Part shown: positions 214-8,293 of the stretch, piece by piece | Numbering within the stretch: position 1 is the stretch's first letter | How the letters are laid out: every line of letters starts with the position of its first letter | From: Candidatus Obscuribacter sp. | GTDB taxonomy: Bacteria; Cyanobacteriota; Vampirovibrionia; Obscuribacterales; Obscuribacteraceae | Length of the DNA: 64,000 bases | Assembly (NCBI GenBank): GCA_016718315.1 | Contig: JADKDV010000011.1 | Location: 5,337 to 69,336 of the forward strand | Direction: 5' to 3' | Made by a program: the position numbers and the translations under genes | The notes under the pieces: generated by a model | What the model was told of the DNA's origin: nothing | Database searches by the model: none | What the model saw: only the letters and a program-made list of their open reading frames with translations

Positions 214-2757
214 ATGACAGACGACACCAAACACAAAATTGGCGACAAGTCGGCGCAACCGGGTGATGGCGCTCACAAGCTTGATAATCCCGAGACCAAA
301 GACCTAGTCAATGCTGGCGGCACAGCCATGCGCGGCATCGAGAGCACACGTACAAACAAGAGCAGCGGTAGCTTTGACGAGTCGCAGGAGATGAGCATTG
401 AGATTGACTTTGGCAATGGTCATAGAGAGTCGAGAAGAAATAAGGGACCTGGGGAGACCGGGCAACCTGCCGAGACTACAAAGCCGTCCCGCGAGCAGCT
501 CAGACACGAGACCCTGGGTGCGCTTATTCCATTGGCGCAAGTTGCGGATGTAAAAGCCTTTCCTGTCATGCAGTCTCAGGCTGACCACGCTGATGTGTCT
601 AAATTCCCCCAGCCACAGCCGCTGCCGTTTCGCCCAGAGCTAAAGCCTTTGCCGATGCCGATATTGCCCAAGGATGGGCCATCGCCGATATTGCATCCTC
701 CTCATCCTGAGTCCGCGGCAAAGGCGAGCCCGGAGCCACCGCTGCCGCGTCCAAATGGACCTGTTTATGTTGATAGGACGGTACCATCACCACTGCTGCA
801 TCAATCGCACGCGCATGAGGCTGCCAGCGTGGAGTCGGCGGCTTTGCAGGCTGTTGTACCGAGAGGTGCTGACTCGGGTGTTATTGAGGGCGCAAGGGAC
901 TTGACGCTATCGCCAAAGGACCAGCCTATTGCTGGATATAGTCCTGAGACGCATGATAAAAATGGCTTTGTCAAAGATCCCGTGGGTTATGGGCTTATGC
1001 TCGCGCAGCAGGTGAAGCCTGGGGACGTAAGGACTGATGTGGCTCCTCCGCCTGCTCCTGTTCCACATATTAATAAACCCACGCAATCGCAAGCGCCAGC
1101 GCCGGTGTCGGTTCCAGCTCCTTTTTCTCCGTCAGTTAAGCCCGTCTTCAGTCCTGCGCCAGTAGTGCCTGTTACGCATAAGGATACTTCGGTAAGTCCA
1201 CAATTCCACCCAACACTGGCACCTCAGCCAATTGACTACGCCGAACTAGCTCGTAAATCAAGGGAGCAATCAGAGGCCAGCCTCAAGGAGGAACTGAGCG
1301 CCAGAGAGACGCTGAACCAATCAAAGCACACGCTAGAAGTAAACGCGCGTGCGGTTATAACTAATAAGACCGAGTGCGACCAGTTTTTGGCTGATATGAG
1401 CGATTTTGAGAAAGGTTATGTTGAGCGCACGCCTCTTGACCGGGCTAAAGCTCTCCTGGAAGTTGCAGAGACTTACAAGCAAGTCGATAGACTGTTGACG
1501 GCGTCTAGTGATGCGATACCTCATACAAAGGAGAGCGCACAAAAGCCTGGGGATACACCATGGCGGGTGCAAATAGCGGAGCAGATAATGCACCATGCGG
1601 CGGTTCCGACGTCTGTGGATCAGGGACCGATGGCAGTTTGTGTTACCGAGTCTCTTCAAGTAAGGCTTTACTACCGAGATCCCTCCTCGATAGCAAAACT
1701 GATTGCTGACGTTGCAATAGGTGGTAAATATTTGGCACGCACAGGGGATAAAAGTTATGTCGTCCCGCCTGGTAGTGAAAATTTGGTGCCTGATGCCTAC
1801 GCGAGGGCTTATGATTTGCAATCGCTTCTGGCAGGCAAACCAGTGCATGCACTAGGCCGGAGTTATTTCGACCCTCGCAGTTTTGCCTCTCAGGTTTTTG
1901 ACGTGACGGCCGTCAATATGGCCATATCTGGAAAGCAAGCGGGGAATTCCTCCCATCTCCAATATTTTCAGCCGACTCAGCGCGAAATTGAATCTGTGAA
2001 AGTTGAAAAGCAATTTGAAGAGCAGGGTAGCGTTAAAGGGAGTGACGGCAGAAACTGGTCCTGGGCTGATTTTTTAGAAAGTAAATCGGCACCAAACTCA
2101 GAAGATGTGGTAAAGCTTAATCGATGGATAACTGGAAAAGTTGAGCAAGGGTTTGTAATTGAGTCTGGAGGTTTATCGCCGGCCGAAGCGGTAATCCCAG
2201 CCAATCGTCAATTTTCGGACTTCGGTAATCTTTCTGGGCTCATTACCAGAATTTATCGATCTGAGGAACTGTCAGGAACTCTCTTGAAGCTCAAAGAGTC
2301 TCAGCAATGGCCACCGATAGTAAGAATGGATTTGTCTAAGCCGCCCACAAGGGAGAAAGGCGGAGCACACCTTATGGTGATAACAGATATTTCAGCCGAT
2401 GGTAAGTTGTTGTCCTATGACAACACTTGGGGGAAACAGAAAGACAGAACAGGAATTCCAAAGATTAGTACTGCTGAAATGGGCGCTAGCATTTTGTCTA
2501 AAGATATCAACGATTTTACTTATTTATCTGACAGCAAAAAGAAGGGAGCTGATGTATCCTCCAATAAGCAAGTTAGGCTGAGACTGTCAGAATATAGTAG
2601 GCTATTGAGCGGAGACGGGATTGATTTGTCTCAGCAAAAACATAAGGACATGTACGAGAGCAAGGAGGCAAAGGACTGGCTTACAATGCATCCATGGGAC
2701 CGAAGATTGGTCGAATGGAAGAAGGCTATAGATGCACTACTTGCAAAATATCCTTAA
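214..2757 (+). CDS. Large Pro-rich protein with a C-terminal papain-like cysteine peptidase domain; no signal peptide
   Basis: 847-aa ORF. The N-terminal ~350 aa are Pro-rich and low complexity. The C-terminal half has DQGPMAVC (Gln six residues before Cys476, tgt 1639-1641), GGAHLMV (His719, cac 2368-2370) and YDNTWG (Asn737), which is the papain-family order Q..C..H..N-x-W-G. Confidence 0.75.
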   Translation: MTDDTKHKIGDKSAQPGDGAHKLDNPETKDLVNAGGTAMRGIESTRTNKSSGSFDESQEMSIEIDFGNGHRESRRNKGPGETGQPAETTKPSREQLRHETLGALIPLAQVADVKAFPVMQSQADHADVSKFPQPQPLPFRPELKPLPMPILPKDGPSPILHPPHPESAAKASPEPPLPRPNGPVYVDRTVPSPLLHQSHAHEAASVESAALQAVVPRGADSGVIEGARDLTLSPKDQPIAGYSPETHDKNGFVKDPVGYGLMLAQQVKPGDVRTDVAPPPAPVPHINKPTQSQAPAPVSVPAPFSPSVKPVFSPAPVVPVTHKDTSVSPQFHPTLAPQPIDYAELARKSREQSEASLKEELSARETLNQSKHTLEVNARAVITNKTECDQFLADMSDFEKGYVERTPLDRAKALLEVAETYKQVDRLLTASSDAIPHTKESAQKPGDTPWRVQIAEQIMHHAAVPTSVDQGPMAVCVTESLQVRLYYRDPSSIAKLIADVAIGGKYLARTGDKSYVVPPGSENLVPDAYARAYDLQSLLAGKPVHALGRSYFDPRSFASQVFDVTAVNMAISGKQAGNSSHLQYFQPTQREIESVKVEKQFEEQGSVKGSDGRNWSWADFLESKSAPNSEDVVKLNRWITGKVEQGFVIESGGLSPAEAVIPANRQFSDFGNLSGLITRIYRSEELSGTLLKLKESQQWPPIVRMDLSKPPTREKGGAHLMVITDISADGKLLSYDNTWGKQKDRTGIPKISTAEMGASILSKDINDFTYLSDSKKKGADVSSNKQVRLRLSEYSRLLSGDGIDLSQQKHKDMYESKEAKDWLTMHPWDRRLVEWKKAIDALLAKYP

Positions 2758-2787
2758 GTTTTAGATGTCCGGTTTAGTAGGAGATTT

Positions 2788-3480
2788 ATGCCACTAATAG
2801 AACCGCCAGATCCGAATTGGAATGAACCAAAAATCGTGCACCAGTTATTGGTTCAAAAGCAGAGCCCCGCTTACAAGCAAATATTGGCGAGTAAGCATGA
2901 AGTTATAGGACCAGGGCCTTCAAACGCTAACTCTAGTCTAAGCGTCCACTTTACCTCTGTGCGACTGACAAAGTTGGATTCTCAAAAATATGATTATCTG
3001 CCTTTTACTTTTATGCAGCTGCCTCAGCCTGGCTGGTGGACTCGACGTCGTACCTTACCTGGCCATATTGACAGATATGAATTGAGATTATCGCCCAATC
3101 AAGATGCTGATACTATCCTCACCGTCCAAAGTGAAGGTGTGCCTTTCGTTGACGAGTATCCTATTTCTAAAATCTTAAAAGAACCACCGCACGCTCTTTC
3201 TTCACAGGAGAAGCATGCCCTTAAAATACGTGAAGTAGAGTCTGAGAAAAACTACACAGCATTACTGCAAGGTAAGCAGGTTTTGTGCTCAGAATCGACT
3301 GCAGATGGAAAAATGGAATACCATCTTTTGTTCAATCATAATCCTGATAGCTCAAGTCCATTCATTCCTGCTCAAATCACATTTGAAGCCAAGCCTGCTC
3401 AATACAAACGCTACATCCAGCAAATAAAAGCTTGCCTGCAAACAATCAATTGGAACGACAAAGTCACCATTGTGCCTTAG
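2788..3480 (+). CDS. Array paralog A1 (unknown-function family, C-terminus ...KVTIVP)
   Basis: ATG at 2788 lies 30 nt after the upstream stop, with AGGAG 8 nt upstream. The N-terminus is MPLIEPP. Shared family motifs are YLPxxxMxLPxxGWWT, ILKEPPH, FNHNPDSS and FEAKPAQYKRYIQQIKACLQTINWNDKVTIVP. No signal peptide or TM segment. Confidence 0.8.
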   Translation: MPLIEPPDPNWNEPKIVHQLLVQKQSPAYKQILASKHEVIGPGPSNANSSLSVHFTSVRLTKLDSQKYDYLPFTFMQLPQPGWWTRRRTLPGHIDRYELRLSPNQDADTILTVQSEGVPFVDEYPISKILKEPPHALSSQEKHALKIREVESEKNYTALLQGKQVLCSESTADGKMEYHLLFNHNPDSSSPFIPAQITFEAKPAQYKRYIQQIKACLQTINWNDKVTIVP

Positions 3481-3514
3481 ACAGTCTCCTATAGGTTTAG
3501 CGCTGGAGAAGTTT

Positions 3515-7436: not shown

Positions 7437-7466
7437 CTCGTTACTTTATTTTTGTGGTGATTCTAG

Positions 7467-8142
7467 ATGCCTCAGTACATTCCACCCAACTACGTCCACT
7501 TTGATAGACATGCTGATGTGCGCTATGTCGCTGCCAAGCCTGCACCTATTAAAGGTCCAGGTGGTTCTCCTTTTGTAGATATTAGACCGGGATCCTCTTC
7601 TGATCGTCCACCCTTTAAGTCCGTACAAGTATCAACTATCACTTCTCCCAAGTATGCCCATTTGCCCATGACATACATGCAGCTGCCTCGACCTAGTTGG
7701 TGGACTCTTGAGCGAGAACTCCCACCATATCCCCAGAATTATGATTTGAGGTTAGCTCCTTAAGGCGATAAAACTACTGTACTCAACTTGGTCAGCACCG
7801 GACGTCCAAAGCTTGAAGACTATCCTTTGATTGCAATCATGAAAATGCCACCGCACCAATTGTCTGCCGATGAAAGAAAGGCTTTGCAGATTGAGGATTC
7901 TTCAAAAATAGCCTATACGGCTTTGCTAAATGGCAAGAAGGTTTTTTATGAGGAGTGGGCCAATAGAGAAGAAATGGGTTTGCGCATTGAGTTCAATCAC
8001 AATCCAGACAACTCTTGCGTACTTCTTTTCTTCGGTCATCAAATTTAAAGCCAAGCCAGCGCAATACAAGCGCTATATCAATCAGATAAAAGCTTGTCTT
8101 AAGACAATTAAGTGGAACGACAAAGTCACTATCACACCTTAG
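7467..8142 (+). pseudogene. Array paralog A4, disrupted by an in-frame stop and a frameshift
   Basis: The N-terminus is MPQYIPP. An in-frame TAA at 7761-7763 sits where paralogs read LSPNQD or LSPDND. The frame changes near 8015-8040, between FNHNPDNS and KFKAKPAQYKRYINQIKACLKTIKWNDKVTITP. Confidence 0.75.
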
Positions 8143-8230
8143 CCTGAGTAATCGCTTACATCTAAAAATGTCTACGTGAGTAGACGCAGCTCTCGCGCGC
8201 AGCCATAATACTGGTCAGACAGACTTCTCT

Positions 8231-8293
8231 GATTTTCGCCATCTATCGGTGCCGCTAAACCAGCTGCGCTTATGCGAAAAAACAATGACACGC
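8231..8293 (+). pseudogene. Array paralog B4, short 5' remnant
   Basis: The sequence gccatctatcggtgccgctaaaccagctgcgcttatgcgaaaaaacaatgacacgcc aligns with the B1 5' end (ccaccatctatcgttgccgccaaaccagctgcgcatgtgcgagcaacgatgacacgcgc). The ATG is lost and nothing follows. Confidence 0.5.

Follow-up and report, generated by a model that had tools for sequence, protein, structure and literature searches.

A putative polymorphic toxin–immunity locus with a papain-like C-terminal domain and an array of partner genes in Candidatus Obscuribacter

Organization of the locus

The DNA analysed here is a 64,000-nucleotide (nt) stretch from Candidatus Obscuribacter sp. (assembly GCA_016718315.1, contig JADKDV010000011.1, positions 5,337 to 69,336 of the forward strand), hereafter referred to as the window, near the beginning of which a gene for an 847-amino-acid (aa) protein is followed on the same strand by an array of small paralogous genes. 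An earlier note, made from the sequence alone, had described this arrangement as a papain-fold protein accompanied by candidate immunity genes. Genes of the locus correspond exactly to the annotated hypothetical proteins IPP57_16545 and IPP57_16540 of a Candidatus Obscuribacter metagenome-assembled genome (MAG), and the boundaries given in the earlier note, with the large gene ending at 2757 and the array starting 30 nt further on, were confirmed by the open reading frame (ORF) list. The same locus was compared in two sister Obscuribacter genomes (L001 and L002) and on two metagenome contigs (L068 and L069), the latter being the only two loci obtained in a metagenome scan with the N-terminal region, sufficient to repeat the breakpoint described below but too few for association statistics. 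The features of the locus are as follows.

214–2757, + strand: large toxin-like gene, 847 aa, from the ORF list; without signal peptide and unmatched in Pfam and NCBIfam.
214–1062, + strand: conserved N-terminal region of the large gene, codons 1–283; 96% nt identity to L002 and 91% to L068, synonymous divergence (dS) 0.10, ratio of nonsynonymous to synonymous divergence (dN/dS) 0.22.
1063–1310, + strand: strain-variable Pro-rich linker; ~50–60% nt identity to L002, BLAST homology stopping at 1064 and restarting at 1310–1311 (L002, L068, L069).
1311–1616, + strand: conserved helical "pre-toxin" segment, codons ~366–468; 92–93% nt identity to L002, L068 and L069.
1617–2757, + strand: polymorphic, putatively catalytic C-terminal domain and tail, codons ~469–847; 35–44% aa identity to the sister genomes, dS saturated.
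1621–1623, 1639–1641, 2368–2370 and 2419–2421, + strand: key residues Gln470, Cys476, His719 and Asp736, respectively, with Trp739; invariant in homolog alignments.
2788–3480, + strand: A1, first (presumed cognate) partner gene, 230 aa, inside the swapped cassette; no nt homology to L002 or L001 over 1617–3501; PsbP/Mog1-like AlphaFold2 (AF2) model.
3515–4162, + strand: B1, putative orphan partner gene, 215 aa; 77% identity to L002 gene s2, family profile E 1e-95.
4200–4472, + strand: C1, pseudogene, a truncated 90-aa N-terminal fragment of a C-type copy, recognised by ORF list, alignment and profile.
4475–5149, + strand: A2, putative orphan partner gene, 224 aa; 3' end homogenised with A1, the proportion of synonymous differences (pS) going down to 0.08–0.36 over the last ~50 codons.
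5184–5831, + strand: B2, putative orphan partner gene, 215 aa; 94% identity to the first (presumed cognate) partner of L001, dN/dS 0.21.
5869–6564, + strand: C2, putative orphan partner gene, 231 aa; 92% identity to L002 gene s3, dN/dS 0.31.
6566–7246, + strand: A3, putative orphan partner gene, 226 aa; 94–96% identity to L002 gene s4 and L001 gene s5, dN/dS 0.21–0.46.
7221–7436, + strand: B3, pseudogene, a C-terminal remnant of a B-type copy, recognised by alignment, repeat analysis and profile.
7467–8142, + strand: A4, pseudogene, an A-type copy frameshifted into three ORF pieces; its N-terminus matches the intact L001 gene s3.

The array (2788–8142) consists of six intact paralogs and three decayed copies, all on the + strand. 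The earlier note was right in describing a same-strand paralog array, although its count of nine paralogs with a tenth remnant has to be reduced to six intact genes and three decayed ones; family sequence is absent from 8143–8293. The paralogy is far above chance (profile E 1e-94 to 1e-108 for the intact copies). Starting with the gap behind the large gene, the spacing along the array is 30, 34, 37, 2, 34, 37 and 1 nt, and at six junctions a GGAG sequence is found 7–10 nt ahead of the ATG, in agreement with the ribosome-binding sites which had been noted for most copies. These tiny gaps, together with the failure of consensus scans to reveal a convincing + strand terminator inside the gene block, suggest that the large gene and the array are transcribed as one unit.

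A higher-order period of 1669 nt corresponds to repeated A-B-C units. The junctions of these units, each comprising the 3' end of one gene, the spacer and the 5' end of the next, are 77–90% alike at the nt level (3331–3592 versus 5000–5261; 3950–4249 versus 5619–5918), far more than the gene bodies, as might result from gene conversion or from unequal crossing-over occurring repeatedly at these sites. Save for the homogenised last ~50 codons of A1 and A2, synonymous sites are saturated between the paralogs, hence the duplications that gave rise to the array are old. A recent tandem amplification was ruled out on the same grounds, the dS between paralogs of the array being saturated everywhere except in the converted 3' segment.

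The large protein and its predicted catalytic domain

The conserved N-terminal region of the large protein contains the motif TNxSSGSxDESQExSIEIDFGNGH, common to its homologs, and may serve as an export or targeting module. In the Kyte-Doolittle scan neither a signal peptide nor a transmembrane helix was detected (highest 19-residue mean 1.36); the same holds for the small proteins (highest 19-residue mean ≤0.83), just as the earlier note had it. The large protein has no Pfam match at E≤1 and none in NCBIfam, PADLOC or the PDB sequences, while sequence and profile searches of the PDB returned chance-level matches only (E≥0.59). A single homolog of the large gene gave a match to Peptidase_C39_2, at an E value of 0.092 only, and the Tox-PL families of Pfam were not matched.

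The Gln-x5-Cys, His and Asp-x-x-Trp motifs of the C-terminal part are invariant across the homolog alignments. Residues 330–847 were modelled with AF2 at a confidence score (pLDDT) of 79 as long helices followed by an alpha/beta domain, the long helices at model residues 13–100 being the pre-toxin segment. In the model the Cys is placed at the N-terminus of a helix and the His at the start of a strand, so that the predicted catalytic residues match those of papain-type enzymes in order, spacing and secondary-structure placement. Besides designed helical-repeat proteins, the best Foldseek matches of the model in the PDB were the papain-fold protein GtgE, phytochelatin synthase Alr0975, a C39-like peptidase and a NEDD8 protease. 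These papain-fold matches are weak (E 0.28–6, target-normalised TM-score 0.14–0.38), because all 518 residues, with their large helical parts, were searched as a single model. The search against BFVD gave nothing except helical-tail and tape-measure noise.

The papain fold proposed in the earlier note is therefore upheld as far as motifs and secondary-structure placement are concerned, whereas the Foldseek backing for it is weak. Chiefly on the motif evidence, the C-terminus of the large protein is likely to be a papain-like Cys-His-Asp hydrolase. Nor does the sequence point to an inactive enzyme, which would have spoken against the proposal made in the earlier note: the predicted catalytic Gln, Cys, His and Asp are all invariant. 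The enzyme may be a protease and may be toxic; its substrates could be proteins, peptidoglycan peptides or something else.

Exchange of the catalytic C-terminus and the first small gene between strains

The surroundings of the locus are closely similar in the sister genomes, with flanking proteins 85–96% identical and a dS of 0.12–0.21 in the flanking gene coding for an M10 zinc protease. The alignment with L002 proceeds at 96% nt identity over window positions 1–1064, falls in the Pro-rich linker, recovers to 93% over 1311–1616 and then breaks off, the stretch ~1617–3501 being unalignable. Past 3501 the two sequences align again, at 85–90% identity across the B-C-A portion of the array and at 91% in the M10 gene of the flank. 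The breakpoints found with L068 and L069 are those found with L002 (1064, 1310 and 1625), and the identity up to 1064 ranges between 91 and 96% across L002, L068 and L069. The swapped block thus comprises the catalytic C-terminus (35–44% aa identity, saturated dS, as opposed to a dS of 0.10 in the N-terminus) and the first small gene, and its breakpoint is located just ahead of the conserved PTSVDQG...C motif.

As judged by sequence class, the C-terminus and the first partner co-vary across the compared loci. L001 and L066 form the only pair of C-termini with more than 50% identity (71%), and they are also the only pair of first partners above that value (58%). Likewise, the C-termini of L002 and of L068/L069 are related (81% at the nt level), and the first partners of these loci fall into one class (L1_s4 type, 54–61% aa identity).

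What is a first partner in one strain may be found as an orphan in another. The first partner of L001 is 94% identical to the orphan B2 of the window, while the first partner of L069 matches the L001 orphan s4 (89% nt identity). The orphans shared between genomes (A3, C2 and B2) display dN/dS values of 0.21–0.46 at a dS of 0.04–0.16. As these values are like that of the flanking M10 gene (0.32), the orphans are maintained under purifying selection. At their far ends, the arrays of L001 and L002 carry A1-like genes, and a remnant of a toxin tail precedes each of these; the remnants are closer to the tail of the window protein (83% over 30 aa; 52% over 54 aa) than to the resident tail. The A1-like genes with their tail remnants look like displaced modules of C-terminus and partner. 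The partner array of L001 is itself interrupted by an insertion (L001 5700–9815), which codes for a 1371-aa protein resembling tetratricopeptide repeat (TPR) proteins.

The family of small proteins

The small proteins have no match in Pfam, NCBIfam, PADLOC or the PDB sequences. No characterised family of unrelated function was hit; such a hit would, according to the earlier note, have refuted its proposal. A profile built from the six intact copies and run against 1.84 billion representative proteins yielded 107 relatives at E≤1e-3, and a search seeded with distant members gave 135 clusters, of which every one with a named source belongs to Obscuribacterales, Melainabacteria or a "Cyanobacteria bacterium". 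Both the large and the small family were found only in Obscuribacterales/Melainabacteria, and both are new at the sequence level.

The core of the family is a C-terminal domain of ~150–170 residues, in which LPxGW, PPHxL(S/T)xxE, LNGK and AP/AKPxxY are conserved and a Trp close to the end is invariant; in PPHxL(S/T)xxE the Glu is invariant across the family and the His nearly so. It is preceded by an N-terminal linear motif in two parts, M-[PG]-hydrophobic-x-[DE]-x-P and then (A/T)EVR(Y/F). The shared motifs listed in the earlier note (LPxxGWW, PPHxL(S/T)xxE, FN(H/A)N, AKPxxYK...IxW and MPxDxPP) are all present in the array, except that the start of A1 deviates slightly (MPLIEPP).

In the AF2 model of A1 (mean pLDDT 74), residues 1–52 are disordered; the domain itself (residues ~60–220) for the most part reaches a pLDDT of 78–95. 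The Foldseek search of this model against the PDB retrieved PsbP, CyanoP, EagT6, SciW, DcrB and LpqN with probabilities of 0.85–1.0 and a best E value of 6.7e-4, the target-normalised TM-score to PsbP/Eag-type structures being up to 0.6. The small proteins are accordingly modelled with a disordered, motif-bearing N-terminal tail and, after it, a PsbP/Mog1/DUF1795-like fold. Membership of PF01789 or PF08786 is lacking at the level of sequence: among 49 members one matched DcrB at an E value of 0.087 and none matched PsbP, and the PDB profile search was empty.

Linkage of the two families across genomes

In a survey of the species genomes of GTDB, 52 loci were collected, essentially all of them from MAGs of Obscuribacterales/Melainabacteria and several per genome. 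The co-occurrence with peptidase homologs that the earlier note had called for was found: 34 of the 36 ORFs of the small family are situated directly downstream of a same-strand homolog of the large gene, often only 4–60 nt away, and the remaining two are artefacts of locus edges or ORF overlap. In the reverse look-ups, too, a large-gene homolog accompanied every full-length member. Viewed from the other side, an adjacent partner is present in 33 of the 62 evaluable large genes and, within the close subfamily, in 23 of 31, three more being part of tandem runs of large genes. A few copies of the family are located apart from any large gene (L001 17978–19270; L002 19652–20362).

The linkage extends to divergent loci. 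In L003, L004 and L007, the C-terminal regions of which are 38–39% identical, a single family member is found directly downstream, while very distant members with 16–23% identity to A1 stand directly behind a large homolog with LysM and YD-like repeats (L009, L010 and, twice, L012). The catalytic domain of distant homologs is preceded by RHS repeats in L035 (E 4.8e-16), L046, L045 and L051, the match in L064 being marginal and below the curated cut-off, and by LysM in L015, L019 and L029.

Two layouts differ from that of the window. In P0095 (L013 6001–9183), a protein of 1060 aa from a contig seen in three samples, the catalytic domain (residues 527–841, E 2e-15 to the window protein) is fused to a domain of the small family (residues 895–1057); the partner start motif is kept internally as MAGEYPKP, and the C-terminal helical tail of the toxin is missing. 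In L029 (4239–10869), three tandem paralogs of the large gene are followed by one partner gene. Tandem large genes, two in number, are also present in L016. Finally, L046, L047, L049, L051–L053 and L056 contain a convergent pair that is conserved in many species, in which a partnerless large gene with RHS repeats faces a large gene with RHS and LysM-like repeats that does have a partner.

Interpretation of the locus

Given the modular build of the large protein, the exchange of its C-terminus together with the downstream gene, the shared orphan arrays, the toxin-tip remnants and the RHS-bearing relatives, the locus is probably a polymorphic toxin–immunity system specific to Obscuribacterales (Melainabacteria). 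The toxin and immunity array suggested in the earlier note is thus sustained by the conserved N-terminus, the C-terminus swapped with the first small gene, the orphans common to several strains and the tail remnants. On the same grounds the large protein with its papain-like C-terminus is probably the toxin, A1 its cognate immunity protein and B1, A2, B2, C2 and A3 orphan immunity proteins; Cpe1/Cpi1 provides an experimental precedent of a papain-like interbacterial toxin with a cytoplasmic immunity protein (PMC12136450).

In such a system the toxin would start with a conserved N-terminus, continue through a Pro-rich linker into a conserved helical segment and end in a toxic papain-like Cys-His-Asp domain. 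A1 would be a cytoplasmic protein that binds and neutralises the resident C-terminal domain, whereas B1, A2, B2, C2 and A3 would have been retained because they neutralise toxin variants of related strains. New variants would arise by recombination swapping the cassette of catalytic C-terminus and first small gene, with older cassettes shifted downstream. As the partners lack signal peptides, the target of the toxin is probably cytoplasmic. The enzyme would be inhibited by binding of the partners and would be exported to other cells.

Several observations weigh against this interpretation. No PAAR, VgrG, LXG, TPS, RHS or other trafficking domain is recognisable in the window protein, which leaves its export unexplained, and no secretion-system genes were seen in the annotated neighbourhoods. 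Foldseek backs the papain fold only weakly (best E 0.28). Roughly half of the homologs of the large gene, for the most part divergent ones, lack a neighbouring partner, and the closest structural relatives of the modelled partner include the Eag/SciW chaperones and not known immunity proteins. Furthermore, some members of the small family (P0029, P0033 and P0034) possess an N-terminal signal peptide, and two tandem partner domains are found in P0029, P0033 and the L001 ORF 17978–19270; these may be periplasmic versions. Both the natural fusion in P0095 and the three-to-one layout of L029, which is the inverse of that in Obscuribacter, are out of the ordinary for a toxin–immunity pair. A chaperone or an inhibitor resembling a pro-domain would account better for both.

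It is such an inhibitor that is at the heart of an alternative built on the logic of staphopains and staphostatins or of zymogens, in which a cytoplasmic protein would hold the cell's own cysteine hydrolase inactive until its export or activation; there would be no antagonism between strains, and redundancy or regulation would account for the extra copies. The tight coupling to a downstream cytoplasmic partner is well accommodated in this way, and so are the P0095 fusion, with its resemblance to an enzyme carrying an inhibitory pro-domain, the single partner of three tandem enzymes in L029 and the LysM and Pro-rich modules, which suggest an envelope-directed enzyme. Self-protection nevertheless leaves unexplained why the C-terminus and the first partner are swapped as a unit between close strains, why orphans that match the first partners of other strains are under purifying selection and why toxin-tail remnants precede orphans, and the predicted fold of the partner is unlike that of staphostatins. 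We regard this explanation as unlikely. Even less credit can be given to an effector chaperone or adaptor of the Eag/DUF1795 kind, although EagT6, SciW, DcrB, LpqN and PsbP are the proteins beside which Foldseek places the small protein, at probabilities as high as 1.0 and E values starting at 6.7e-4, and PsbP/MOG1-like proteins encoded beside type VI secretion system (T6SS) toxins have been described as putative adaptors (PMC3482391). A PsbP/Mog1-like protein would then stabilise the large protein or load it for export, the array supplying alternative adaptors, and both the P0095 fusion and the layout with one partner for three enzymes do exist. Yet the partner co-varies with the catalytic C-terminus and not with the conserved N-terminus, where such export chaperones bind; the large protein is devoid of the hydrophobic helices bound by Eag chaperones; and purifying selection would be surprising for adaptors whose cognate effector is not resident. 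The eag genes usually lie upstream of the effector gene, but the partner gene is downstream of the enzyme gene, and by sequence the family belongs neither to DcrB/DUF1795 nor to PsbP. A chaperone of the Eag type in the strict sense was ruled out by the absence of transmembrane helices and PAAR from the large protein together with the co-variation with its C-terminus.

The small proteins could also be substrates of the hydrolase, which would for example clip their MPxDxPP...AEVRY tails, or diversified effectors exported alongside it. The bipartite N-terminal linear motif, conserved family-wide and predicted to be disordered, is in keeping with this, as is the existence of members with a signal peptide or two domains (P0029, P0033, P0034). 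Substrates, however, need not be exchanged together with the catalytic domain, no neighbourhood suggests an assembly or maturation pathway, and orphan copies persist without a matching enzyme variant; a role as substrates or co-effectors is the most improbable of the three. The three alternatives fail mainly because none of them explains the cassette swapping together with the conserved orphans, both of which a polymorphic toxin–immunity system would. An anti-phage defence system was also considered and dismissed: there was no PADLOC hit, and the adjoining AbiE pair is a separate module.

Comparison with known systems

The catalogue of polymorphic toxin systems by Zhang et al. (2012; PMC3482391) includes papain-like toxin domains, arrays of orphan immunity genes and PsbP/MOG1 domains in polyimmunity loci. 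The locus resembles the polymorphic toxins of the Rhs and contact-dependent inhibition (CDI) type in having an N-terminus conserved between strains, a putatively toxic C-terminal domain exchanged jointly with the gene behind it, an array of orphans further downstream, toxin-tip remnants ahead of some orphans and homologs with RHS repeats. It is unlike them in that the window protein has neither a recognised trafficking domain nor a linkage to a secretion system, in that all the C-terminal variants encountered come from one homologous enzyme family and not from unrelated toxin types, and in that the families of toxin and immunity protein are both absent from Pfam. Reports of polymorphic toxin systems in Melainabacteria were not found in the literature, and a search on secretion systems of Obscuribacter gave nothing relevant.

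With Cpe1–Cpi1 the locus would have in common the papain-like cysteine hydrolase as C-terminal toxin and an immunity protein without signal peptide, which implies a cytoplasmic target; no sequence relationship was detected, though, and Cpe1 is tied to delivery by T6SS or CDI. The Eag/DUF1795 and PsbP/Mog1-fold proteins share with the partners the predicted fold of the ~170-residue domain, and eag genes, too, stand beside a toxin-like gene. The partner genes differ in being downstream and in co-varying with the catalytic domain, their products have an additional disordered motif-bearing tail and no sequence membership, and the large protein contains no transmembrane segments for a chaperone to shield.

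The resemblance to staphopain–staphostatin and SpeB–Spi is one of logic only, a gene for a cysteine protease being followed in the operon by that for a specific cytoplasmic inhibitor. Staphostatins are small beta-barrels of ~110 aa, and staphopains carry a signal peptide and a propeptide; here the partner is an alpha/beta protein of 215–231 aa, and the enzyme has neither signal peptide nor propeptide. For staphostatins, neither arrays of orphans nor a swapping of cassettes between strains is known to us. The analogy drawn in the earlier note consequently retains its logic and loses its structural part, since the partner is modelled as a PsbP/Mog1-like fold with a disordered tail and not as a small beta-barrel; homology to staphostatins was ruled out because the fold differs.

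One may speculate that the disordered N-terminal tail of the partners is a binding element, perhaps a pseudo-substrate. A more far-reaching proposal, which we put forward with considerable reserve and consider doubtful, is that of an undescribed delivery route for polymorphic toxins in Obscuribacterales, in which a conserved N-terminal motif of ~70 residues in these proteins, devoid as they are of a signal peptide, would serve as export or loading signal, perhaps in combination with Pro-rich, LysM or RHS modules. Immunity would then rest on a protein of the PsbP/Mog1 fold, the conserved disordered N-terminal tail of which (M-[PG]-hydrophobic-x-[DE]-x-P ... AEVRY) would act as a pseudo-substrate and obstruct the active-site cleft. 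A T6SS-chaperone fold would in that case have been recruited as the antidote of a protease toxin.

Neighbouring genes in the window

The array is directly followed on the + strand (8404–10094) by a pair coding for an AbiEi antitoxin and an AbiEii nucleotidyltransferase toxin, i.e. a type IV toxin-antitoxin system associated with abortive infection. In the distant locus L007, too, the toxin-partner module has an AbiEi/AbiEii pair behind it (12097–13909). A gene at 10229–12373 (− strand) of the window encodes a 714-aa protein in which a matrixin (M10) zinc-protease domain and TPR-like repeats are combined with an N-terminus resembling a signal peptide, and which is a conserved neighbour in L001, L002 and L013, in the latter near the fusion protein. 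Further along the − strand (12545–16049) there is a run of effector-like genes, coding for a Fic-domain protein (12545–13918), a metallophosphatase (14213–14881) and a leucine-rich-repeat protein (14958–16049). The putative toxin locus, the AbiE pair and the effector-like run together look like a conflict or effector island. At 23256–26916 (+ strand), the gene for a SNF2-family helicase (582 aa) is overlapped at its start by a 649-aa ORF for which Pfam gave no match, and the two may constitute another defence-type pair. The window contains no tRNA genes.

Implications

While the kind of system proposed here is well known, the two families that make it up are both new as far as their sequences are concerned. 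For these unnamed families, present in multiple copies across Obscuribacterales/Melainabacteria, the locus offers a functional hypothesis with clear candidates for cognate pairs. If correct, it would introduce a new papain-like toxin domain together with a new immunity fold, common to the Eag chaperones of T6SS and to PsbP. Toxins without a known trafficking domain would, in addition, provide a handle on effector export in the Obscuribacterales lineage. Polymorphic toxin–immunity warfare would be extended to the non-photosynthetic sister lineage of cyanobacteria.

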